A stretch of 64,000 bases of DNA from Alphaproteobacteria bacterium (GTDB taxonomy: Bacteria > Pseudomonadota > Alphaproteobacteria > UBA828). Shown in pieces: positions 4,212-55,638 of the stretch. The stretch is from positions 672,001-736,000 of the forward strand of contig CBDCRW010000004.1 of the NCBI GenBank assembly GCA_965221125.1, written 5' to 3'. Under the pieces are notes generated by a model that made no database searches, was not told where the DNA came from, and worked only from the letters and a program-made list of their open reading frames with translations. Within the stretch, counting starts at the first letter, position 1. Every line of letters begins with the position of its first letter. The position numbers were made by a program, and so were the translations under genes.

Positions 4212-4300
4212 CGGCCCTGGCCCGGCGGGAGTTCCGTCCCCCGGGCCTCTCTTTGTCGTTCAGTGAGAGGCCAAGATTACGGACGCTCCCCGCCGCCGCC

Positions 4301-4434
4301 AAGCTGTGGAGCCGTGGACGCGTCCTGCGGACCGATCGGCGTCCTGCGGACCGTGTGGACAGCCCGTGGACAAGCTGGCGCTTGCCCACCGCCTGACCAC
4401 ACTCGCCGATCTCGCGCCCACCGCTCCACAGCTT
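4301..4434. other. Long imperfect hairpin in transposon leader (copy A)
   Basis: AAGCTGTGGAGC...GCTCCACAGCTT closing stem with nested stems; mirror of 45033-45166. Confidence 0.7.
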
Positions 4435-32676: not shown

Positions 32677-33849
32677 ATGCCGGCGCAGATCAAGATCACC
32701 AAGCGGGTCATCGACAGCATCGAGTGCGACGGAACCGACCGCTTCTACTGGGACCGGGAGCTGCCGGGGTTCGGTATGCGGGTCAGGGCATCGGGCCGCA
32801 AGTATTTTGTCACCCAGTTCCGCGCCAGCGGCCGGCTTCGCCGCATGACCCTGGGCCCGGTCACGGCCATGACCCCGGAGATTGCGCGCAAACGCGCGAT
32901 GGCCCTGCTCTCCGAGGCCAAGTCGGGAGGCGATCCTGCTATGCAGCGGGACGCAGACCGGAAGGCGGCAACCGTCAAGCTGCTCGGACAACGGTTTCTC
33001 AACGAGTACGTCCCCGACCACTGCAAGGAGAGCACGGCCTACGAATACCGGCGTTCGGTCGAGTTGTTCATCGATCCTAGGATCGGCAGCCGCAAGGTGA
33101 CCGAGGTCCAGCGGAAGGACATCGCCGAACTGCATCATGCGATGCGGAAGACGCCCTACCAGGCCAACCGTACCCTCGGTGTGCTCTCGAAGATGTTCAA
33201 CATGGCGGAGGTGTGGGGCCTGCGGCCTGACGGCTCGAACCCCTGCCTGCACGTCAAGCGCTTCAAGGAAGAGAAGCGCGAGCGGTTCCTGAGCACCGAG
33301 GAGTTCCAGCGCCTCGGTGCGGTTCTCGACGAAATCCTCAAGGACGGCTCCGAGACCCGTTCGGCCGTCGTGGCCATCCGCCTGCTGATGCTGACCGGCT
33401 GCCGACTTTCGGAGATCCAGAAGCTGCGATGGGAGCATGTCGACCTGGGCGCCGGGGAGTTGAACCTGCCCGACACGAAAACGGGCGGCAGGGCGGTGCC
33501 GCTGGCGCCTTCGGCGGTGCGGCTTTTGGAGTCTCTCCCCCGCGACGACGACAACCCGTGGGTGATCGCCGGCCGGAAGGCTGATTCCCATCTCACCGAT
33601 CTCCAGCATCCGTGGCGGCGCATCCGAGAGCGCGCTGAACTGCCCAACGTGCGAATTCATGACCTCAGACATTCGTTCGCGTCCAGGGCGCTGGCGCTCG
33701 GCGAAGGGCTGCCTATGATCGGGAAGCTCCTTGGTCACACGCAGGTGCAGACAACCGCCAGATATGCTCACTTGGCCCGGGATACCGTCAAAGCCTCCGC
33801 CGCGCGCATCGGAGATAGCATCGACAACGATCTCGAAGCTACGCCATAA
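32677..33849 (+). CDS. Tyrosine integrase with N-terminal arm-binding domain
   Basis: WDRELPGFGMRV; TGCRLSEI, HDLRHSFAS, LLGH, TARYAH. Confidence 0.95.
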   Translation: MPAQIKITKRVIDSIECDGTDRFYWDRELPGFGMRVRASGRKYFVTQFRASGRLRRMTLGPVTAMTPEIARKRAMALLSEAKSGGDPAMQRDADRKAATVKLLGQRFLNEYVPDHCKESTAYEYRRSVELFIDPRIGSRKVTEVQRKDIAELHHAMRKTPYQANRTLGVLSKMFNMAEVWGLRPDGSNPCLHVKRFKEEKRERFLSTEEFQRLGAVLDEILKDGSETRSAVVAIRLLMLTGCRLSEIQKLRWEHVDLGAGELNLPDTKTGGRAVPLAPSAVRLLESLPRDDDNPWVIAGRKADSHLTDLQHPWRRIRERAELPNVRIHDLRHSFASRALALGEGLPMIGKLLGHTQVQTTARYAHLARDTVKASAARIGDSIDNDLEATP

Positions 33850-38806: not shown

Positions 38807-39832
38807 ATGACCCAACCCGCCACCATCTCCGCGGACTACACGCTCCGCCCGAGCGAGGTCGCCGCGACCCTCGCCCTGCTCGTCGAAGCCCGCCAGCCGG
38901 CGATGCTATGGGGCGCCCCGGGCACGGCGAAGTCGATGATCGCCCAGCAGGTCGCCGACGACGGCAACCGCCGCTATGTCGACGTCCGGGCGCTGCTTCT
39001 GGACCCCGTCGACCTGCGCGGCATCCCCTGGCGCGACAGCGACGGCCGCACCCGCTGGGCCCCGCCGGTATTCCTGCCCCCCACGAACGACACCGGCCTC
39101 TGGCTCATCAACCTCGAAGAGCTGCCGTCCTGCGTGCCGATGGTGCAGGCGGCGTTGTATCAGCTCGCGCTCGAACGCAAGGTCGGCGAGTACGCGCTCC
39201 CGGAGGGCGCATCGCTGATTGCCTGCGGCAACCGCGAGGGCGACCGCGGCGTGGTCCACCGCATGCCGACCCCGCTGGCGTCGCGCTTCGTCCACCTGGA
39301 GATCCGGGTCGACGCCGATGACTGGCTCGCCTGGGGCGCGGCCAACGGCATCGCGGCCGAGGTGCTGTTCTTCATCCAGCTCGAGCCGACGCTTCTCCAC
39401 CAGTTCGACCCGCAGTCGAAGGAGAAGGCGTTTCCGTGCCCGAGGACGTGGCATTTCACGAGCAACATCGTGCATCGCCGCAACGGCCTCGACCCGTCGG
39501 TCGAGCGCGCGCTGCTGCGCGGCACCATCGGCGAGGCCGCCGCGGTCGAGTTCGCGGCGTTCCTCAAGGTCTGGCGCGAGCTGCCCCATCCCCGCGCCGT
39601 CATCGGCGATCCCGGGAACGCCGACATCCCCGAGAACGCGAGCGCGCTGATGGCGCTCTGCGGCTCGCTCTACCGCATGGCAAGCGACGTCAACTTCGAC
39701 GCCATCGTGACCTATGCGGCGCGGCTCAGGCGCGAGGTGGGCGAGTTCCTCGTCGGCTCCTGCGTGCGCCGGGAGCCGGGGTTGCAGCGCTCGCCCGACT
39801 TCATCCGCTGGGCCGCCGCCAGGACCCAATGA
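38807..39832 (+). CDS. MoxR-type/AAA_5 ATPase, paralogue 2 (341 aa)
   Basis: GAPGTAKS, NLEEL, ACGNR, PLASRFVH; collinear with 15606-16631. Confidence 0.88.
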   Translation: MTQPATISADYTLRPSEVAATLALLVEARQPAMLWGAPGTAKSMIAQQVADDGNRRYVDVRALLLDPVDLRGIPWRDSDGRTRWAPPVFLPPTNDTGLWLINLEELPSCVPMVQAALYQLALERKVGEYALPEGASLIACGNREGDRGVVHRMPTPLASRFVHLEIRVDADDWLAWGAANGIAAEVLFFIQLEPTLLHQFDPQSKEKAFPCPRTWHFTSNIVHRRNGLDPSVERALLRGTIGEAAAVEFAAFLKVWRELPHPRAVIGDPGNADIPENASALMALCGSLYRMASDVNFDAIVTYAARLRREVGEFLVGSCVRREPGLQRSPDFIRWAAARTQ

Positions 39833-39978
39833 GGGAGAAGCCCATGGTCTGGCGCATCGTCCATTACCCCGCCGGCCCCGCGCCGTCGCGCGACTACGCG
39901 GTGCGGGCGCCCACCCTCATTGCAGCGAAGCGGAAGCTCGCCGCCGCCCTCCAAGTCCCCTTGTGGACGCTCCGTTAG
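39829..39978 (+). CDS. Small hypothetical protein (44-49 aa)
   Basis: ATGA overlap with the ATPase stop; fills the operon gap. Confidence 0.45.
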   Translation: MREKPMVWRIVHYPAGPAPSRDYAVRAPTLIAAKRKLAAALQVPLWTLR

Positions 39979-39996
39979 CCCCAGAGGAGAGAGCCC

Positions 39997-40896
39997 ATGA
40001 ACCTCACCGACGACGCCATGCAGGTGTCCTTGCGCATCACCGCCTGGTCCGGCCGGCTCTACGACCGCCAGGCGAGCAACCACGTCGCCGTCCAGCACGA
40101 GGCCTCGACCAGCGCCGGGCGCTACAACAAGCGCCTGCTGCCCAAGGCCGCCCTGGCCGCGCTCACCGCGACGGTCAGCGCATGCAGGACCGCGCATTAC
40201 GAACAGACCCTGCCGTGGGACGACCAGGGCTCGCGGCTGCTGACCGTCGCCAACTACGAGCACTACACGGAGCTCATGGACGGGTTCCGCGAGCGCATGG
40301 TGCGCGACCGCGCCCGTTTCATCGAGGATTACGACAACAATGTCGACCAGGCCCGGCTCGACCTCGGCAAGCTCTTCCGCATCGAGGACTATCCCTCCAA
40401 GGAGGCGCTCCAGGGCAAGTTCTCGATCCGCTACCGCATCACTCCGGTGCAGGACGCCGAGCAGTTCATGGCGAAACTCGCGACCGACGATGTGGACCGG
40501 ATCAGGCGCGACATCGAGTGCCAGATCGAGGAGCGCCTGCACGATGCGGTGGGCGATCTCTACCGCCGCTTCGGCGAAGCGGTCGAGCGGGTCTCGGAGC
40601 GGCTGCGGGAGGACGAGAACGGCAAGCCGCTGGTGTTCCGGGATTCGATGATCTCCAACATCCGCGACCTCGTCGATGTGGTGCCGCGGCTCAACATCTT
40701 CGGCGACGACGAGCTCGCGCGCCTCTGCGAGCAGGTGAAGGAGAAGATCGCGAGCGTCGAGCCCGACGCGCTCCGGCCGTCGAAGTCGTTCGATCCCGTG
40801 GCGCGTGCGCGGGTGAAGCGCGACGCCGACGAGCTGATGGAGAAGTTCGCGGGCTATTTCGCGGCGCCCGCCGAGCCGGTGCGGGAGGCCGCGTGA
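39997..40896 (+). CDS. DUF3150-like helical protein
   Basis: AGGAG RBS; TLPWDDQGSRLL, DYPS, FRDSMISN, LNIFGD; lies between MoxR and VWA genes. Confidence 0.65.
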   Translation: MNLTDDAMQVSLRITAWSGRLYDRQASNHVAVQHEASTSAGRYNKRLLPKAALAALTATVSACRTAHYEQTLPWDDQGSRLLTVANYEHYTELMDGFRERMVRDRARFIEDYDNNVDQARLDLGKLFRIEDYPSKEALQGKFSIRYRITPVQDAEQFMAKLATDDVDRIRRDIECQIEERLHDAVGDLYRRFGEAVERVSERLREDENGKPLVFRDSMISNIRDLVDVVPRLNIFGDDELARLCEQVKEKIASVEPDALRPSKSFDPVARARVKRDADELMEKFAGYFAAPAEPVREAA

Positions 40897-42284
40897 TGAC
40901 CACCCGCGTGATCGAGGAATCCGCGCAGCGCGTGAGCGACGGCGTGACCGAGCTTCTGCGCAAGCAGCCCTTCTTCGGGAGCCTCGCGCTCAGGCTCCCG
41001 CTCAGGGCCGACCCGAGCCGGGAGACGCTGGCGAGCGACGGGCACGAGATCCGCTACTCGCCCCGATGGGTCGCGGCCACCGACGCGCACCTCATCGAGA
41101 CCGCGATAGCGCGCGTGGTGATGGCGTGCGCGCTGAAACACCACACCCGCCGGGGCGAGCGCGACCCCGAGCGCTGGCAGATGGCCTCGCAGCTCGTCAC
41201 CCATGCGCTCATTCGCGACGCGGGCTTCACCCTGCCGCCCGACGCCGAGGCGCTGGAGGGGGTGAGCGTGGAGGAGGCATACGACCGCCTGCCCGAGCCC
41301 CGCGACGACGACCCCGGCAATGACGGCGATTCGCCTCCGCCCGGCGGCCAGCCCTCCGGCGCAGGCGTTGGCGACGGGGCTTCGCCCGACACGGCGGACA
41401 GCGACGGCGCGCCGGATGCCGGTGACGGACAGGGCCAGGACGATGCCGGCGATGACGACCAGGGCGGGAACGGACCCGGCGGGGACGGGCAGGACCGCGA
41501 TGACGGTTCCGATGCGCCGGCAAGCCACGATCCTTCTGGCACCGGGGAGATCATGGATGCGGGCGCCCGGGGCGACGGAGACGGCGATGCCGGTGACGGC
41601 GAGACGCCGGTGGACGTCACCGCCGAAGAGCAGGCGTGGGACGAGGCCATGCACCAGGCCATGAACCTCGCCAGGGCCGAGGGCAAGCTGCCGGGCGGGG
41701 TCGAGGAGACGGTGAAGAACGCCCACGCCAGCACGCTCGACTGGCGGAGCCTCCTGCGCCGCTACATGACCGATGCCGCGCGCCGCGACTACAGCTGGAG
41801 CCTCCCCAACCGGCGCTTCATCGACGGCGGTCTCTATCTTCCCTCCATCCGCTCCGAGGGCATGGAGGCGATCGCGGTCATCATCGACACGTCGGGCTCG
41901 CTGCCGGCCCGGACCCTCGACGAATTCTGGGCCGAACTCCGCGAGATCGCGGCCGAGATCCAGCCGGAGAGCGTCCACGTGCTCCAGGTCGACGCCGCGC
42001 TGCAGGACGCGGCGGAGTACGCGCCGGACGACCTGCCCGAGGAGATCGTCGTCAAGGGCCGGGGCGGCACCGACTTCCGCCCAGGCTTCGAGTGGCTCGA
42101 CGAGCAGGGGATACAGCCCGCCGTCTGCCTCTACTTCACCGACATGGAGTGCTCCGACTACCCCGAGGCCGAGCCCGGCTTCGATGTTATCTGGGCGAAC
42201 TGGGGTCCGCCTCCGTCCGGCTGGAACCGCGAGCCCTGGGGCGAGCGCATCGACATCGCCACCGACCGGGCAGCCCGATCATGA
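40896..42284 (+). CDS. DUF2201-type metallopeptidase-like + acidic linker + VWA-like protein (462 aa)
   Basis: PFFGSLA, LDWRSLLR, IIDTSGS (MIDAS), GRGGTDF, YFTD; TGATG coupling with the upstream gene. Confidence 0.85.
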   Translation: MTTRVIEESAQRVSDGVTELLRKQPFFGSLALRLPLRADPSRETLASDGHEIRYSPRWVAATDAHLIETAIARVVMACALKHHTRRGERDPERWQMASQLVTHALIRDAGFTLPPDAEALEGVSVEEAYDRLPEPRDDDPGNDGDSPPPGGQPSGAGVGDGASPDTADSDGAPDAGDGQGQDDAGDDDQGGNGPGGDGQDRDDGSDAPASHDPSGTGEIMDAGARGDGDGDAGDGETPVDVTAEEQAWDEAMHQAMNLARAEGKLPGGVEETVKNAHASTLDWRSLLRRYMTDAARRDYSWSLPNRRFIDGGLYLPSIRSEGMEAIAVIIDTSGSLPARTLDEFWAELREIAAEIQPESVHVLQVDAALQDAAEYAPDDLPEEIVVKGRGGTDFRPGFEWLDEQGIQPAVCLYFTDMECSDYPEAEPGFDVIWANWGPPPSGWNREPWGERIDIATDRAARS

Positions 42285-42541
42285 CGCGCGCGATCCACGG
42301 CGCCCCCGCCGAGGCGCTCAGGCGCGCGCTGGAAGCGCTGTCGCAACTCTCGTTCTGGATCGCCTGGACGGCCGACCCCGATCTGTACCCCGACGCCCCG
42401 GTCAGCACCCGCTGCCTGCGCGATGCCGCAGGCGGTCTTCGCAAGGCCGCCGGTCTCCTCGACGACGCCGCGGAACAGGTCGAGGCACAATACGAACCCG
42501 GCTTCGACATACGCCATCGTGCGCAAGACGGTCGGCCATGA
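42281..42541 (+). CDS. Hypothetical protein (86 aa)
   Basis: ATGA overlap with the VWA gene stop. Confidence 0.5.
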   Translation: MTRAIHGAPAEALRRALEALSQLSFWIAWTADPDLYPDAPVSTRCLRDAAGGLRKAAGLLDDAAEQVEAQYEPGFDIRHRAQDGRP

Positions 42542-42655
42542 TACGGCGCTTCCGGAGCCGGGCGCCCGGGCGGTTCATGCAACGCGGCGACCAACGCCAC
42601 ATCCATCCGGAGCACGTCGCGGCACGTCGCGGCGTGGACATCGGGCCGACCTCAG

Positions 42656-42668
42656 GCTACATTGTAGC
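42656..42668. promoter_or_regulatory. Palindromic operator of dinJ/relB-yafQ
   Basis: GCTACA-T-TGTAGC just upstream of the antitoxin RBS. Confidence 0.6.
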
Positions 42669-42688
42669 TCAATCAGGAGGATCGACAC

Positions 42689-42946
42689 ATGAGCACCGTC
42701 GTTCGGGCCCGCATCGACGAAAAGACCAAGCAGGAAGCCGCCGCCGTGCTCGACGCGATCGGCCTCACCGTGTCCGACGCCTTCCGCCTGATGATGGTGC
42801 GGATCGCGGCCGAGAAACGCCTGCCGTTCGAGCCCCTGGTGCCGAACGCGGAGACCGTAGCGGCCATGGAGGCCGCGCGGCGGGGCGACCTGGTCACGGT
42901 CGGCGATGTCGACGGCCTGACGGCCGACCTTCATGCGGACGATTAG
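42689..42946 (+). CDS. dinJ: RelB/DinJ antitoxin
   Basis: VVRARIDEKTKQEAAAVL..GLTVSDAFRL....LPFEPLVPNAET. Confidence 0.88.
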   Translation: MSTVVRARIDEKTKQEAAAVLDAIGLTVSDAFRLMMVRIAAEKRLPFEPLVPNAETVAAMEAARRGDLVTVGDVDGLTADLHADD

Positions 42947-43197
42947 ACGGACCGCGGCCTTCAAGCGGGATTACAGGCGCGAGAAGAGGGGCCGCTTCGC
43001 CAGGACCGTCGATGCCGAACTGGCGGAGGCCCGGCCGATCCCGCCGCGCCATCGCAACCACGCGCTTGGCGGGCAATGGAAGGGGGCTTACAAGGAAATG
43101 TCGACGGCGAGGCCATCCGCCGACCGGCCTCTTTCGATGCCTCCATGGCCGTTGCCGTAGAAGCGGGGATGGCTCCATGCCAGGCAAGGGGGTGCCC

Positions 43198-43884
43198 GTG
43201 CAATTCGACATAAATGTGCTCCCCGAGCCGCAGAGACGGCTGTGGGAGGTGCTTGACGGTACGCCGTCGGGCTTCGTTCTTTACGGAGGCACGGCGCTTG
43301 CATTGAGGCTGGGGCATCGTCAGTCCGTCGATTTCGATTTCTTTTCTCGCGACGCCTTCCAGCCCGATGCGCTCCGAAGGAACATTCCCTACTTGAGCGG
43401 AAGCCTGACGATCCGAAGCGAGGAAAACACCTTGTCATGCGTTCTGAACCTGGATGGCGAGGTGATGGTGTCGTTTTTCGGAGGCCTCCGCATGTCCAGC
43501 GTCAACGACCCGGACAAAGCGGACGGATCTGGCATTCTTGTGGCGTCTTTGCCGGATATCGCCGCGACAAAGGCGGCTGCGGTTCAATCGCGCGCCAGCG
43601 CCAAGGACTATATCGACCTGGACGCCCTGCTGCGATCCGGTCTCTCGCTTGAGGAGGCGCTGGGGGCCGCCAATGCCGTATTCGGCCCTGAGTTCAATCC
43701 TCTGGTGACGCTCAAGGCGCTTGCTCATTACGCAGACGGCAATCTGCACCAGGTGCCGAATGAGGTTCGTGAAAACCTGACGAAAGCCGTTGCTGCGGTC
43801 GATGTTCAGAACCTTCCGGTATTCGAGCCGCGCGCACGCCTTTGTCCCGACGAAACAGGAACGGAGCACGACAATGGCTTCTGA
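43198..43884 (+). CDS. AbiEii/AbiGii-family nucleotidyltransferase toxin
   Basis: FVLYGGTALALRLGHRQSVDFDFF, KAAAVQSRASAKDYIDL. Confidence 0.88.
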   Translation: MQFDINVLPEPQRRLWEVLDGTPSGFVLYGGTALALRLGHRQSVDFDFFSRDAFQPDALRRNIPYLSGSLTIRSEENTLSCVLNLDGEVMVSFFGGLRMSSVNDPDKADGSGILVASLPDIAATKAAAVQSRASAKDYIDLDALLRSGLSLEEALGAANAVFGPEFNPLVTLKALAHYADGNLHQVPNEVRENLTKAVAAVDVQNLPVFEPRARLCPDETGTEHDNGF

Positions 43885-44338
43885 GATTTCGGATGACGCC
43901 CCCGGAACAAGGAAGGCGGCCCCGGACTCCGATCCGGGGAGGCAGACGCTGCTTGAGGTTGCGCGGCGGGTGGTATGGTTCCAACCGCCTCACGAGACGC
44001 TGCGCGACGAGGTCCAGTTCCTGAACCATGTGATGATCTACGGCTCCTCGGAGGATACGGCGACGGTCCGCCGCGCCTATGGCGACGAGGCACTGCGCGA
44101 TGCCTTGCGCAATGCCTGGCCCGGGATCTTCGATCCACGCTCCTGGTCCTACTGGCACACGGTTCTCGGGATGCTGCCCGTGCCCCCGATGCGCGTTCGG
44201 CAGTTCCCCGCGGAGCCGGGGGAAGCGGTTCCCGAGGTGAGCCCGGCCATTCAGGGGCATGGCGGCCCTCCAAGAGGCCGGGGGACCGGGGCGCCGGACC
44301 GAAACATGCCTGCTCCGGCTCCAGGCCCGTCCGACTGA
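43874..44338 (+). CDS. Putative partner/antitoxin of the AbiEii-like gene
   Basis: Overlaps the toxin stop; ARRVVWF..FLNHVMIYG..PGIFDPRSWSYWH. Confidence 0.6.
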   Translation: MASEISDDAPGTRKAAPDSDPGRQTLLEVARRVVWFQPPHETLRDEVQFLNHVMIYGSSEDTATVRRAYGDEALRDALRNAWPGIFDPRSWSYWHTVLGMLPVPPMRVRQFPAEPGEAVPEVSPAIQGHGGPPRGRGTGAPDRNMPAPAPGPSD

Positions 44339-45032
44339 TCCCCCTTCTTCGCGGAGTACCCGCTCCCGGCACCGTCTTCCGATGAGCGGGGTTTCGTGTT
44401 TGGGCCGTGGCGCCGAACAGGAATTGGCGCCTTGCTGCTGCGCGCTCCCGCGGCAGGGAGGCGCTCCGCCAACCTTTCCTTGCAAGTCCCAATGGAAGAA
44501 CCACCGGGACTGTCACGTCCGGCCCGATCTGGTCCTGATCTACCGCAAGCCCGACGCCGGACATCTCGATCTCGTGCGTCTCGGCTCGCACAGCCAACTC
44601 GGCCTCTGACCGGCCGCGCCTTCCGGACCCCCGCGATCCCCGCCCTCCAATAGTCGGCCGACGCTCCGGTCCACGACCCGAGGCACTTTCCCCAGGGCCG
44701 GCCGCCGCTCATCCGCCGTCGCCCGCGCGCCGTCTTCCACCGTTTCCGATACCGCCGCACCGCACCGTCCGCCGTTTCCGGCGGCGGCGACGGTCGGGCT
44801 GCGCCTCCCGGAGCCGGAGAGCAGCCGGTCGGGGGCGGGCGTGGGCAGGCGGCGAGAGCCGGCTGCGCCGCGCCGGTGCAACCCTCTGTTGTTTTCCGGT
44901 CTAGCCGGATAGAAGCACGGGTTTTTTTCTCACTTTGATTGGTTGGTGGATTTCCCGGGATGGTGGCCGAGTGCGGGAAGGACGCTGCCTGCGGCATTTT
45001 TTTGATCCTCAGCAGAATCCTCATTGCTGTTG

Positions 45033-45936: not shown

Positions 45937-47265
45937 ATGAACAGCTCAGACGACGACCTTCGCCAACAGATCGCGCTCTTCCGATACGACGTCATCGCCG
46001 ATCTGGTGCATCTGCCCGTGGGTGCACCGGGTGCCGGCGCGATGATGCGCGCCAAAGCCGAGAAGACCTACACGATCCCCGGAACCACCAGGACCCGGGT
46101 CGCCGCCGAGACCATGCGGCGCTGGATCAAGGACTACCGCTACGGCGGCTTCGACGCGCTCTACCCCAAGCCCCGCACCGACCGGGGGAAGCCCCGGCGG
46201 CTGCCGCCCGAGGTCGCCGAGCGCCTCATCGCGCTGAAGACCGAGAACGACGCATTGTCGGTTCGCGCCATCATCCAGAAGGTCAAGGAGGAGGGTATCG
46301 ACCACCCGCTCGCCTCGTCCACCGTGCACCGCCTCTTCAGCCGCGAGGGCCTGTTCGACAAGAAGCCGCCCGACGGGGCGGATCGCCGCCGCTTCGCCTT
46401 CCGGCATGCCGGCGAGATGTGGATGAGCGACGTCATGCACGGACCCAAGGTCCGGCACGGCCGAACCCGGCGCAAGACCTACCTGATCGCCTTCATCGAC
46501 GACGCCACCCGCGTCATCCCGTTCGCCGCCTTCGCCATGGCGGAGAACACTGCGGCGTTCCTGCCGGTGTTCAAGGACGCGCTGATCCGGCGCGGCCTCC
46601 CGGCCCGCTTGTACGTCGACAACGGAAGCGCCTACCGCTCCCGTCATCTCTCCCTGGTCTGCGCCAGGCTCGGCGTTGCGTTGATTCACGCAAGGGCGTT
46701 CCAGCCAGCGGGAAAGGGTAAGATCGAGCGCTTCTTCCGCACCCTCCGGGCCGGCTGGCTCCGCCACCTCGGCGATGACGTCGACAGCCTGGAGGCGCTC
46801 AACCGCAGCCTCTGGGCCTGGATCGAGGGGGAGTATCACAACAGCCCGCATCGTGGCCTCGACGAGGGGCGCACCCCGCTTGAGCAGTGGGCGCTGGCCT
46901 CGGCCGGCGTGCGCTATCCCGACGCCACCATGGACCTCGACGATCTGTTCCTCTTCGAGGCCAGGCGCCGTGTCTACAAGGACCGCACCGTTAGTCTGAA
47001 CGGCCGCGTCTACGAGGTCGACGCCCTCCTGGTGGGTCAGAACGTCATCCTGCGCTACGACCCGGCCGCGCCGCCCTCGCGCCCTCTCGACGTGGTCCAT
47101 GACGGCAAGCCGGCCGGCAAGGCCAGCCCTCTCGACGCCTACGCCAATACCGCCGTCAGGCGCACCTACCCGGCCAGGGAGATCGAGGCCGAAGATCCGG
47201 CGCCCGAGCCTCCGCCCTCGCCGCTGGCCATGCGCAACCTCAAGGACAAGAAGGAGGACGAGTGA
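45937..47265 (+). CDS. DDE transposase (Mu/TnsB-like)
   Basis: Identical to 2202-3530. Confidence 0.92.
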   Translation: MNSSDDDLRQQIALFRYDVIADLVHLPVGAPGAGAMMRAKAEKTYTIPGTTRTRVAAETMRRWIKDYRYGGFDALYPKPRTDRGKPRRLPPEVAERLIALKTENDALSVRAIIQKVKEEGIDHPLASSTVHRLFSREGLFDKKPPDGADRRRFAFRHAGEMWMSDVMHGPKVRHGRTRRKTYLIAFIDDATRVIPFAAFAMAENTAAFLPVFKDALIRRGLPARLYVDNGSAYRSRHLSLVCARLGVALIHARAFQPAGKGKIERFFRTLRAGWLRHLGDDVDSLEALNRSLWAWIEGEYHNSPHRGLDEGRTPLEQWALASAGVRYPDATMDLDDLFLFEARRRVYKDRTVSLNGRVYEVDALLVGQNVILRYDPAAPPSRPLDVVHDGKPAGKASPLDAYANTAVRRTYPAREIEAEDPAPEPPPSPLAMRNLKDKKEDE

Positions 47266-48065
47266 TGTACCTGCGCCACTTCGCCTTCACCCGCCTGCCC
47301 TTCGAGACCCCGGCAGAGACCGACGAGCTGTTCGAGTCCAACGCGCGCCGCGAGGCCGAGGCCAGGCTCGGCCACCTCATCGACCTGCGCGGCATCGGCC
47401 TGCTCACCGGCGAGGTGGGCTCCGGCAAGACCACCGTGTGCCGGCATCTGACCGCGCAGCTTCATCCAGGCCTCTACCGGGTCCACTACGTCTCGCTGAC
47501 CACGGGCAACGTGCTCGACATGTACAAGGCGATCGCGTGGGAGATCGGCCTGCCCATCGAGCGCTCCCGCGCCTCGGCCTATCAGGCCATCCGAAACGAG
47601 ATCTCCCGCCTCGTCACCGAGGCCAAGCAGCTGCCGGTCCTCGTCATCGACGAGGCCCATCATCTGCGCAACGACGTCCTTGAGGACCTGCGCCTGCTCA
47701 CCAACTTCGCCATGGATGCAGAGCAGCGCCTGTGCCTCGTCCTCGTCGGTCTGACCGAGCTCAGGCGCCGCCTGGCCATGGCCATGCACGAATCCCTCAG
47801 CCAGCGCCTCGTCGTCCGCCACCACCTGAGCGGTCTCGACCGCGACGAGGTCGACGCTTACATCAAGCACCGCCTCAGGCTCGCGGGATGCGAACTGCCG
47901 CTGTTCGAAGAGCCCGCCGTCGAGGCCCTGTTCCAGGGCGCGCGCGGCCTGCCGCGCCAGATCAACCGCATCGCCCACTACGCGCTCTCCGCCGCCGCTC
48001 TCGACGAGGCGAGGACCGTCAGTGCCGACCACCTGCAGCACGCGCTCGAGGAACTGCGGCCATGA
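47262..48065 (+). CDS. ExeA/TnsC-like AAA+ ATPase
   Basis: Identical to 1402-2205. Confidence 0.88.
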   Translation: MMYLRHFAFTRLPFETPAETDELFESNARREAEARLGHLIDLRGIGLLTGEVGSGKTTVCRHLTAQLHPGLYRVHYVSLTTGNVLDMYKAIAWEIGLPIERSRASAYQAIRNEISRLVTEAKQLPVLVIDEAHHLRNDVLEDLRLLTNFAMDAEQRLCLVLVGLTELRRRLAMAMHESLSQRLVVRHHLSGLDRDEVDAYIKHRLRLAGCELPLFEEPAVEALFQGARGLPRQINRIAHYALSAAALDEARTVSADHLQHALEELRP

Positions 48066-54492: not shown

Positions 54493-55638
54493 TTATCCCG
54501 CCACCTCGGCAATGCGGCTGGCGATCCGGTTTGCGGCCGACTTGACGGGATCGTTGGCGAGGTGGGCATAGCGGGCGGTGGTCTGGACCTGCGTGTGGCC
54601 CAAGAGCTTTCCGATCATCGGCAGGCCCTCACCGACCAACAGCCCTCCGCTGGCGAAGCTGTGCCGCAGGTCATGGATCCGCACGTCACTCAGTCCGGCA
54701 CGCTCTCTGATACGCCTCCACGGGTGCTGCAGGTCGGTGAGATGGCTCCCCGGCTTGCGTCCCGCGATCACCCACGGGTTATCTTTCTGCCTGCCGATCC
54801 CGCGCAGCACCGCGATCGCAGGTTCCCCGAGATGCACGACCTTGGCTCCAGTCTTCGTGTCCGGCAGCCTCAGCTCCCCGGCGTCGAGTTCCACATGCTC
54901 CCATTTCAGCTTCTGGATCTCCGACAACCGGCAGCCGGTCAGCATCAGAAGGCGGACCGCCGCGATGGCGGCGGCCGTCTCCGAGCGCTCCTGCTCGATC
55001 TCTTTCAAAGCGGCGCCCAGGCGCTGGTACTCCTCGTCCGACAGAAAGCGCTCCCGCTTCTCCTCCTTGAACCGCTTCACATGCCGGCACGGGTTCGAGC
55101 CGTCAGGCCGAATCTCCCATAGCTCTGCGAGATTCATCATCTTCGACAGCACGCCCAGCGTCCGGTTGGCCTGATAGGGGGTGTCGCGCATGTTGTGGTG
55201 GAGTGCGGCGATGTCGCTCCGCTGAACGTCCGGCACCCGCAGCTTGCCGATGCGGGGGTCGATGAACAGCTCGATCGAGCGGCGGTACTCCTCTGCCGTG
55301 CTCGCCTTGCAGTGGTCGGGGACGTACTCCTTGAGGAACCGTTTCCCGAGATCACGCATGGTCGGCGCCCCGGACCTGCGCCCCGAAGGGTTCTTTCCGG
55401 CCCTCGCGTCCGTGATGATCTCGGCGGCCCGCACGCGGGCATACGTGGTGGAAACAGCCGTGCAGGGCCCGATGGTCATCTTGATGACCCGCCCGCGATG
55501 GCGCGTCTTGACGATGAAGACCTTGCGCCCCGAGGGATGGATCCTCACGCCGAAGCCCTTGAGGTCGTCGTCCCAGACCACGCGCTCGCGTTCTTTGGGC
55601 TTGAGGGCATCGACGGTGCGCTTGGTGATCTTGGGCAT
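54493..55638 (-). CDS. Tyrosine integrase, paralogue of 32677-33849
   Basis: TGCRLSEI, HDLRHSFAS, LLGH, TARYAH; shares TPYQANRTLGVLSKM and HLTDLQHPWRRIRERA with integrase 1. Confidence 0.95.
   Translation of the reverse strand: MPKITKRTVDALKPKERERVVWDDDLKGFGVRIHPSGRKVFIVKTRHRGRVIKMTIGPCTAVSTTYARVRAAEIITDARAGKNPSGRRSGAPTMRDLGKRFLKEYVPDHCKASTAEEYRRSIELFIDPRIGKLRVPDVQRSDIAALHHNMRDTPYQANRTLGVLSKMMNLAELWEIRPDGSNPCRHVKRFKEEKRERFLSDEEYQRLGAALKEIEQERSETAAAIAAVRLLMLTGCRLSEIQKLKWEHVELDAGELRLPDTKTGAKVVHLGEPAIAVLRGIGRQKDNPWVIAGRKPGSHLTDLQHPWRRIRERAGLSDVRIHDLRHSFASGGLLVGEGLPMIGKLLGHTQVQTTARYAHLANDPVKSAANRIASRIAEVAG

Follow-up and report, generated by a model that had tools for sequence, protein, structure and literature searches.

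A transposase-free cassette with IS1595-type ends and a putative toxin-antitoxin cargo interrupts a yafQ gene in an alphaproteobacterium

In 2004, De Palmenaer et al. reportedly described MIC231, a mobile insertion cassette (MIC) derived from the insertion sequence (IS) IS231, and the IS1595 family, as Siguier, Gagnevin and Chandler are said to have set out in 2009, includes members with passenger genes ("transporter IS"). The sections of PMC3129680 that bear on the subject describe both MICs and IS1595 members with passenger genes and state that transposase-less cassettes can be activated by the cognate transposase of a related IS. Toxin-antitoxin pairs are known as passengers too, in Tn3-family transposons (PMC7157771). 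Here we describe a 1408-bp insert in a 64,000-nt window of the alphaproteobacterial contig CBDCRW010000004.1 (assembly GCA_965221125.1), the window being the whole stretch of DNA that was analyzed and the source of all position numbers given without a locus code. The insert is very probably an IS1595-derived MIC whose cargo is a putative toxin-antitoxin pair and whose target was a yafQ toxin gene. Throughout, G codes denote genomes (G000 is the host of the cassette), L codes loci, and X codes public sequencing runs.

How well is the insert delimited? It occupies positions 43083-44490 (+ strand) between perfect 8-bp target duplications, AATGGAAG, which directly abut its 25-bp terminal inverted repeats. 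A hand count gives 20 identical positions out of 25 between the left and right repeats, and an inverted-repeat search placed a 40-nt pair (I2), 70% complementary, exactly at 43083 and 44490. The 16-nt core of the repeat, with up to two mismatches allowed, occurs at only two places in the window, which are the two cassette ends in inverted orientation; the chance expectation is 0.13 matches, and two or more matches were seen in 0 of 100 shuffles. The preliminary description of this DNA had given the same insert, repeats, and duplication, and its coordinates were reproduced; it had also held that the repeats resemble no other ends in the window, which fits the confinement of the core to the cassette. 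It is extremely improbable that repeats and duplication are coincidental or that site-specific recombination, of a gene cassette or through an island integrase, brought the DNA in: two tyrosine integrase genes do lie nearby (Table 1), but the shuffles, the exact abutment of the 8-bp duplication on the repeats, and the recurrence of this architecture across a family of elements (below) all speak against such an origin.

Between its ends, the insert holds two overlapping open reading frames (ORFs), preceded by a leader of 94 bp and followed by a tail of 152 bp, and nothing else, confirming the earlier statement that it consists only of a nucleotidyltransferase gene and an overlapping downstream partner gene. 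By Pfam, gene-neighbor, and structure comparison, the passenger genes have no relation to transposition. A degenerate transposase inside the insert had been named in advance as one of two findings that would undo the proposal; tblastn searches of the insert with three IS1595-family transposases found no remnant (best E 0.42-0.45). One candidate remnant of TnpB was rejected: its tblastn E value of 0.007 rose to 0.075 over 29 residues once the low-complexity filter was on, and the match is an arginine-rich stretch antisense to the partner gene. An Rfam scan of the window region and of one TnpB cassette gave nothing at E ≤ 0.1.

To which family do the ends belong? Relatives were found by searching for the repeat in genomes that hold close copies of the cassette and then reading the ends of the elements. 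By hand count, the cassette ends are identical to those of IS1595 elements in G047 at 19-20 of 25 positions, and the right end of a sister cassette, L026, reaches 22-23 of 25. Autonomous elements with such ends were read in G047 and G062 (Table 1). The transposases of L212 and L211, the two proteins covered by the Pfam scans, match PF12762 (DDE_Tnp_IS1595) together with PF12760 (a Zn-ribbon), while that of L222 was typed by its 77% identity to the L212 protein. For the L212 element, the repeats match at 23 of 25 positions. Both L212 and L211 hold passenger ORFs in addition to the transposase. Beside the L212 transposase lies a 196-aa ORF (L212:1889-2479) with no Pfam match and, by eye, hydrophobic stretches.

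The same ends also enclose transposase-less elements that carry TnpB alone, a DUF1353 ORF, no clear gene, or no cargo (Table 1). The TnpB/OrfB_IS605 proteins are 418-425 aa long, those of L189 and L201 match PF07282 and PF01385, and the tnpB stop codon of L189 lies 29 nt from the element end. L194 is a truncated copy of a TnpB-only element. Because several transposase-free elements are flanked by perfect 8-bp duplications, elements of this kind do transpose. A class-wide pattern scan of 401 genomes found matches only in G000, G047, G287, and G319 (the genome of L028). No named IS was matched among annotated plasmid transposases, the closest of which share only ~40% identity with the G047 protein. 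The 8-bp duplication had previously been said to fit the IS256, IS1595, and IS66 families, and the transposases of the autonomous relatives now identify IS1595. The repeats, whose absence from all other places was the second finding that would have undone the proposal, are present on sister cassettes, on elements with other cargo, and on autonomous IS1595 elements with 8-bp duplications.

Table 1. Features of the window and elements with related ends; plain positions are those of the window, and positions with an L code are those of the named locus
Feature	Positions	Strand	Genome	Size and content	Target duplication	Evidence
Sigma-70-like promoter candidate, upstream of dinJ	42635..42663	+		TGGACA-17-TACATT		consensus match only
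dinJ/relB-type antitoxin gene	42689-42943 (also given as 42689..42946)	+		85 aa, intact		Pfam, TIGR
yafQ 5' fragment	42933..43082	+		codons 1-50		YafQ_toxin PF15738 profile positions 1-53
Target duplication, left copy	43075..43082	.		abuts left repeat	AATGGAAG	
Non-autonomous IS1595-family cassette (MIC)	43083..44490	+		1408 bp	AATGGAAG	anatomy and relatives
Left terminal inverted repeat	43083..43107	+		GGGGCTTACAAGGAAATGTCGACGG		sequence reading
Nucleotidyltransferase gene	43177..43884	+		235 aa, AbiEii/MenT (DUF1814) type		Pfam, alignment, structure model
Partner gene	43874..44338	+		154 aa, 11-nt overlap with nucleotidyltransferase gene		ORF, conservation, model
Terminator-like hairpin with T-rich tail, 3' of partner gene	44377..44401	+				consensus scan only
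Right terminal inverted repeat, reverse complement	44466..44490	-		GGGACTTGCAAGGAAAGGTTGGCGG		sequence reading
Target duplication, right copy	44491..44498	.		abuts right repeat	AATGGAAG	
yafQ 3' fragment	44499..44609	+		36 codons and stop		PF15738 positions 54-86 (44499-44606), E 7.6e-11
Tyrosine integrase gene	32677-33846					
DUF2201 protein gene	39714-42281					
Mu/TniA-like (rve) transposase gene	45937-47262			1.3 kb downstream of yafQ		
AAA_22 (TniB-like) ATPase gene	47262-48062			directly after Mu/TniA-like gene		
Tyrosine integrase gene	54493-55635					
Autonomous element	L212 759-2531		G047	1773 bp, transposase 331 aa	CATCGAAA	PF12762 140 bits, PF12760
Autonomous element	L211 9288-11538		G047	2251 bp, transposase 311 aa	TTTGTCCC	PF12762 116 bits, PF12760
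Autonomous element	L222 1439-3162		G062	1724 bp, transposase 346 aa, open	AAAAAATA	identity to L212 protein
Transposase-less element	L189 1501-2844		G062	1344 bp, TnpB only	ATAATTCC	
Transposase-less element	L196 1501-2851		G062	1351 bp, TnpB only, apparently frameshifted	TTTTTCAT	
Transposase-less element	L201 1501-2817		G062	1317 bp, TnpB only	none	
Transposase-less element	L195 1501-2644		G061	1144 bp, DUF1353 ORF, 275 aa	none recognizable	
Transposase-less element	L209 1501-2449		G047	949 bp, no clear gene	imperfect	
Transposase-less element	L198 1501-2123		G062	623 bp, no cargo	AAATGAAA	
Transposase-less element	L211 19102-19488		G047	387 bp, no cargo	TATTCATG	
Transposase-less element	L193 1254-1525		G061	272 bp, no cargo	AATCCATC	

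On these sequence grounds, we regard the insert as a MIC derived from the IS1595 family; since it encodes no DDE_Tnp_IS1595 transposase, it is a derivative of that family and not an IS proper. As in MIC231 and other MICs, IS-type repeats and a target duplication surround passenger genes with no transposase among them. Unlike MIC231, its parent family is IS1595 rather than IS4/IS231, its cargo is a toxin-like nucleotidyltransferase pair, and its mobilization is deduced. With the IS1595 family it shares 8-bp duplications and closely related repeats, and it sets itself apart from the complete ISs of that family by the missing transposase. Tn3-family transposons resemble it in carrying a toxin-antitoxin-like module inside a transposable element, but they are autonomous and hold classical type II pairs, whereas the cassette is a 1.4-kb transposase-less IS1595 derivative. 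The preliminary description overstated its case in calling passenger-only cassettes rare, given that the pertinent sections of PMC3129680 treat MICs as an established class. The cassette is a genuine case of bacterial hitch-hiker DNA, though of a fairly ordinary type, and its value lies in its completeness: occupied and empty sites, autonomous relatives, and sisters with other cargo were all found for a fully delimited transposase-less IS1595 derivative.

How might such a cassette have arisen and moved? We propose that it descends from an IS1595-family IS; the 25-bp repeats of the family are kept, and the interior consists of two passenger genes with no transposase. An IS1595-type DDE transposase supplied in trans by an autonomous relative would have recognized the repeats, and insertion at the AT-rich octamer AATGGAAG would have yielded the 8-bp duplication typical of the family. 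Mobilization in trans had been suggested before, and the existence of autonomous relatives with related ends supports it; no cognate IS was found in G000, so that the event is historical at best.

An enzyme-based scan recovered five close copies of the cassette in other genomes (L025-L029). L025 is 98% identical, flanks included, and so represents the same insertion. L027, L028, and L029 are 85-86% identical to the cassette overall (86-88% in BLAST segments) and keep the yafQ 5' fragment and an identical left junction, with a higA-like gene upstream. L027 and L029 have lost the right repeat; among these three, only L028 keeps it, and different DNA follows there. L026 is 87.5% identical overall (90% in the best BLAST segment), is equally transposase-free, and has unrelated flanks on both sides. 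Shared left junctions and flanking homology point to a single ancestral insertion rather than repeated targeting; the comparison indicates that the yafQ insertion is old, one event common to four other genomes, with later decay or rearrangement on both sides.

These copies bear on two further explanations. One holds that a complete IS1595-type IS with passengers lost its transposase in place and was never mobilized in trans, for which L212 and L211 offer a precedent, as autonomous relatives that combine a transposase with passenger ORFs. We judge this improbable in light of L026, which has the same transposase-free content at an unrelated site, of the lack of any transposase remnant in the insert, and of the perfect 8-bp duplications around many other elements that have such ends and no transposase. 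The other holds that the yafQ insertion was targeted or selected, the cassette tending to disarm the toxins of its host. In its favor, the same yafQ position is occupied in five genomes, and G287 has a homologous dinJ-yafQ locus that likewise borders on IS1595-family pieces. However, the five appear to share one ancestral event that was later rearranged, the G287 locus is empty at the cassette target, and other members of the family lie at unrelated octamers (Table 1) that are mostly A+T-rich, in contrast to the 64.6% G+C of the host window. Targeting is therefore very improbable, and the disruption of yafQ appears to be a chance event at an AT-rich target.

In G000 itself, neither the cassette nor its ends were found a second time. 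A plasmid collection queried with the cassette DNA gave no match, and metagenome contigs scanned with the enzyme yielded relatives of at most 55% identity and no further cassette copy. Two identical open copies of an IS1595-family transposase, 343 aa long and 59% identical to the G047 protein, are present in G000. The single copy, the 5 mismatches among 25 end positions, and the lack of an IS with matching ends in G000 suggest that the cassette is probably now a fixed, immobile relic there. The two transposase copies lie in G000:C5:2258-6238 and G000:C7:84651-88631 (L214 and L215), which are identical over 3981 bp and hence form a repeat of at least 3981 bp; each open 343-aa gene stands next to a tRNA-like sequence. 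Nested in two of the sister cassettes are ~200-bp inserts, A+T-richer than their surroundings (L028:~4222-4422 and L029:~2765-2953), which resemble miniature elements from a different family; short inverted ends of its own and TAAGTAG on both sides mark the insert in L028.

What did the insertion do to its target? The upstream gene encodes a DinJ protein that matches RelB (PF04221) with 67 bits and TIGR02384 with 71.8 bits (cut-off 45.65). The cassette lies between codons 50 and 51 of yafQ, leaving the antitoxin gene whole and the toxin gene broken, and the frame of the 5' fragment runs on into the end of the cassette, giving an ORF of 75 aa (42933-43160). Because the two halves end and start at positions 53 and 54 of the PF15738 profile, their join is seamless, in keeping with the earlier view that a resident toxin gene has been disabled. 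It had also been said that removing the insert restores an 86-aa YafQ. The join stands, but the length of 86 aa reflects the fact that the window copy is short of 7 codons present in all compared homologs: an in-frame loss of 21 bp within 42990-43040, relative to G009, the paralog on G000:C7, and the L027-L029 fragments. As the L027-L029 fragments keep these codons, the deletion postdates the insertion and reads as decay in the lineage of the window. The DinJ-YafQ system here thus consists of an intact antitoxin and a YafQ that is both split and missing 7 codons.

Empty yafQ alleles, which the preliminary description had proposed to look for, exist in congeners and in one metagenome, each with a single AATGGAAG. 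When 60 related genomes and G000 were searched at the DNA level, the insert matched G000 only, apart from one 36-bp match at E 6e-4. The left and right flanks, by comparison, match side by side at 12 loci in 10 other genomes and at one paralog on G000:C7. At the empty site of G009, ...GGCGGGCAATGGAAGGACCACCGGGAC..., AATGGAAG occurs once, YafQ is intact with 93 aa, and the flank matches overlap by 10 bp. In DNA run X4, one contig spans both junctions (42992-44558) and a second joins 43083 to 44500, leaving out 1416 bases (1408 + 8); the occupied form is therefore accompanied in that sample by the empty form or by the intact gene of a close relative. The G000 paralog (L024, G000:C7:701453-702023) is an intact dinJ-yafQ pair with a 93-aa YafQ and ~79% DNA identity, so that loss of the split yafQ leaves this type of toxin in the cell. 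A close dinJ-yafQ homolog, uninterrupted at the cassette target, lies at L213 (G287:C143, 1984-3700). This homolog has lost the dinJ 5' end and the yafQ 3' end; directly adjoining it, on the opposite strand, is the N-terminal part of a transposase gene of the IS1595 family, and a cassette-type repeat lies 700 bp upstream; we treat this adjacency as a coincidence in an IS-rich region.

What does the cassette carry? The 235-aa enzyme matches AbiEii (PF08843) over residues 31-166 with 61.5 bits (cut-off 22.5). Nucleotidyltransferases of this kind share the motif G-G/S ... D-x-D. In an alignment of 46 homologs, D52, F53, D54, D144, and D147 are invariant and G37 and G38 nearly so, which fits a G-G...D-x-D motif; we take G37/G38 and D52-F53-D54 to be catalytic residues. 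The AlphaFold model (pLDDT 94) finds its best matches in the Protein Data Bank (PDB) in MenT1 (8an4; E 1.6e-5, TM 0.46/0.53), JHP933 (4ok0; E 3.1e-5), MenT3/TglT (6y5u; E 6.6e-5), and MenT4 (6y56; E 1.6e-3), so that by model the enzyme shares the MenT/DUF1814 toxin fold, at modest TM values of about 0.4-0.5. Like the MenAT toxins and JHP933, it is a small DUF1814-type nucleotidyltransferase; unlike them, it matches no solved-structure chain by sequence at E ≤ 1 and has a different partner family. Between the window and sister copies, dN/dS is 0.17-0.38 for both cargo genes.

The partner is less familiar. Its homologs are typically ~96 aa long, whereas the window copy has 154 aa, with a conserved helical core at residues ~21-110; it is modeled as a five-helix domain whose core has pLDDT >94 and whose N- and C-terminal extensions are of low confidence. 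It has no match in Pfam, NCBIfam, or PADLOC, AbiEi included. Against DUF6922 (PF21956), weak matches come from 11 of 53 aligned relatives (best E 1.6e-4) and none at E ≤ 1 from the window protein; the protein Atlas links the partner to a DUF6922 cluster with a feature score of 0.92. From these comparisons the partner may be distantly DUF6922-like, and it is not AbiEi. A full-text literature search for DUF6922 returned no paper with that name. A resemblance to the C-terminal helix of MenT1 was set aside, its Z of 3.6 lying within noise.

How tightly are the two genes associated? In a survey of 160 loci with relatives of the enzyme (80 genomic and 80 metagenomic), 153 have the partner next to the enzyme gene, on its downstream side in 129 cases and on its upstream side in 24, and in the remaining 7 the contig ends within 107 nt of the enzyme gene. 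The enzyme relatives are spread over many phyla. A repeat scan of 155 more distant pair loci (L030-L184) gave one weak match, with 5 mismatches, and none in reversed controls, which indicates that the pair normally lies outside such cassettes. Structure prediction of the enzyme-partner complex scored 0.74, against 0.02 for the best control. Of 157 solved complexes, 116 attained the former score, as did 2 of 215 mismatched pairs; agreement between runs was at least 97% of contacts, with a partner pLDDT of at least 86. The predicted contacts join the invariant partner residues R89, S90, W91, and Y93 to the conserved F173-N174-P175...K180 helix of the enzyme, and the predicted interface, which involves enzyme residues 174-187 and 202-211 and partner residues 57-63 and 88-103, uses the most conserved residues of both proteins. 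The partner is thus predicted to bind the enzyme directly, with its invariant R-S-W-x-Y-W motif docked against the conserved helices at the C-terminal end, and the pair may be a toxin with a directly binding antitoxin. Such a pair would promote maintenance of the cassette or give protection from phage.

The passengers had been called an AbiEii-like pair, a label that holds for the enzyme, on the strength of its PF08843 score, and fails for the partner, which has no AbiEi match. AbiE, which consists of AbiEi and AbiEii, is classed as a type IV system, in which toxin and antitoxin make no contact. The cassette resembles AbiE in an enzyme above the PF08843 threshold; it differs in that the partner is an all-helical protein with a core of ~96 aa rather than AbiEi, usually lies downstream where AbiEi lies upstream, and is predicted to bind the enzyme directly. 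A reading of the cargo that departs from toxin-antitoxin altogether, as a constitutive two-subunit enzyme or a sensor-effector pair (e.g., a defense or modification enzyme with its specificity subunit), seems rather unlikely. The partner's lack of a match to any antitoxin family, the enzyme-first order in 129 of 153 loci, a predicted contact on the C-terminal helical domain that does not obviously cover the active site, and a fold that also resembles antibiotic nucleotidyltransferases, with weaker scores, would all suit it. The best structural matches, however, are toxins of toxin-antitoxin systems (MenT1, MenT3, and MenT4), Pfam assigns the enzyme to AbiEii, and the tight linkage in either order (24 of 153 swapped), the overlapping frames, and the scatter across phyla fit a toxin-antitoxin pair.

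Is the cargo expressed? A promoter scan of 42450-44750 recognized a single promoter-like site, the candidate upstream of dinJ (Table 1), and none in the 94-bp cassette leader. Just upstream of that candidate, GCACGTCGCG occurs twice in tandem as a direct repeat (42611-42630), which may be an operator. In the autonomous relatives, the left repeat includes TTGACA or TTGACG, followed in L222 by TATATT 17 nt later, which we read by eye as a probable transposase promoter; the left repeat in the window has TCGACG at the same position. Two RNA libraries (X13 and X14) have contigs over the enzyme gene, one of which (X13, 43035-43686) crosses the left junction, and an RNA-library contig at 44408-44571 crosses the right junction; gaps between the X13 and X14 contigs (e.g., 43939-44343 in X13) are uninformative on transcription. 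These data hint at read-through from the dinJ promoter into the cassette genes. Transcription might enter from this co-oriented promoter and stop at the hairpin before the right repeat. The earlier idea that the passengers use the dinJ promoter thus draws only on the leader without a recognized promoter and on the junction-crossing X13 contig.

Several points weigh against an IS1595-derived MIC with toxin-antitoxin cargo. On the side of mobility, the trans-mobilized insertion step is deduced from anatomy and relatives. All copies except L026 share the yafQ insertion, so that independent mobility rests on one locus, and L026 lacks a recognizable duplication (4 of 8 positions at best, by eye). 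Beside the IS1595-family transposase genes of G000, no cassette-related repeats were found at up to 8 mismatches in 25. On the side of the cargo, the enzyme has no NCBIfam match and only a weak PADLOC match to AbiEii (at most 23.5 bits), the enzyme-first gene order is atypical for AbiE, and the partner model resembles no known fold (best Foldseek E 1.6; best Z 4.8 in the wide VIA-align search). The enzyme gene is apparently frameshifted in L028 and L029, with the partner ORF open there, which could be decay or an assembly error, possibly from long reads. The RNA-library contigs show neither transcript starts nor strands and may contain DNA.

What would these findings mean? The cassette could model the spread of small defense or addiction modules by non-autonomous elements, and it points to an uncharacterized and very common module, a MenT/AbiEii-like nucleotidyltransferase with a DUF6922-like partner. 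This module and the TnpB-only cassettes with DDE-type ends are the more interesting leads. A literature search on TnpB and IS1595 found no title about TnpB within IS1595-type ends. We also put forward, as a speculation that we think doubtful, a joint reading in which a swappable chassis, a bacterial Fanzor counterpart, and a new toxin-antitoxin family come together under an orphaned DinJ. If so, the same 25-bp ends and 8-bp duplications would serve these alphaproteobacteria as a chassis for a DDE transposase, the RNA-guided nuclease gene tnpB alone, DUF1353, nothing, or the nucleotidyltransferase pair; TnpB as sole cargo of a DDE element would be the bacterial counterpart of the Fanzor genes in eukaryotic DDE transposons; and the nucleotidyltransferase and its DUF6922-like partner would form a new, directly binding toxin-antitoxin family that keeps a non-autonomous cassette in place and, lying behind dinJ, falls under the control of the orphaned antitoxin.

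The surroundings of the cassette include, besides the dinJ-yafQ locus, genes for a DUF2201 protein, a Mu/TniA-like transposase, and a TniB-like ATPase (Table 1), and the region bracketed by the two integrase genes looks like an integrated mobile island. Reads from outside the assembly also contain this DNA: between 73% and 90% of the sampled words of 42400-44800 occur in DNA runs X4 and X6-X11, which are labeled as sponge metagenomes and come from three studies, and part of the same interval occurs in two metatranscriptome libraries.

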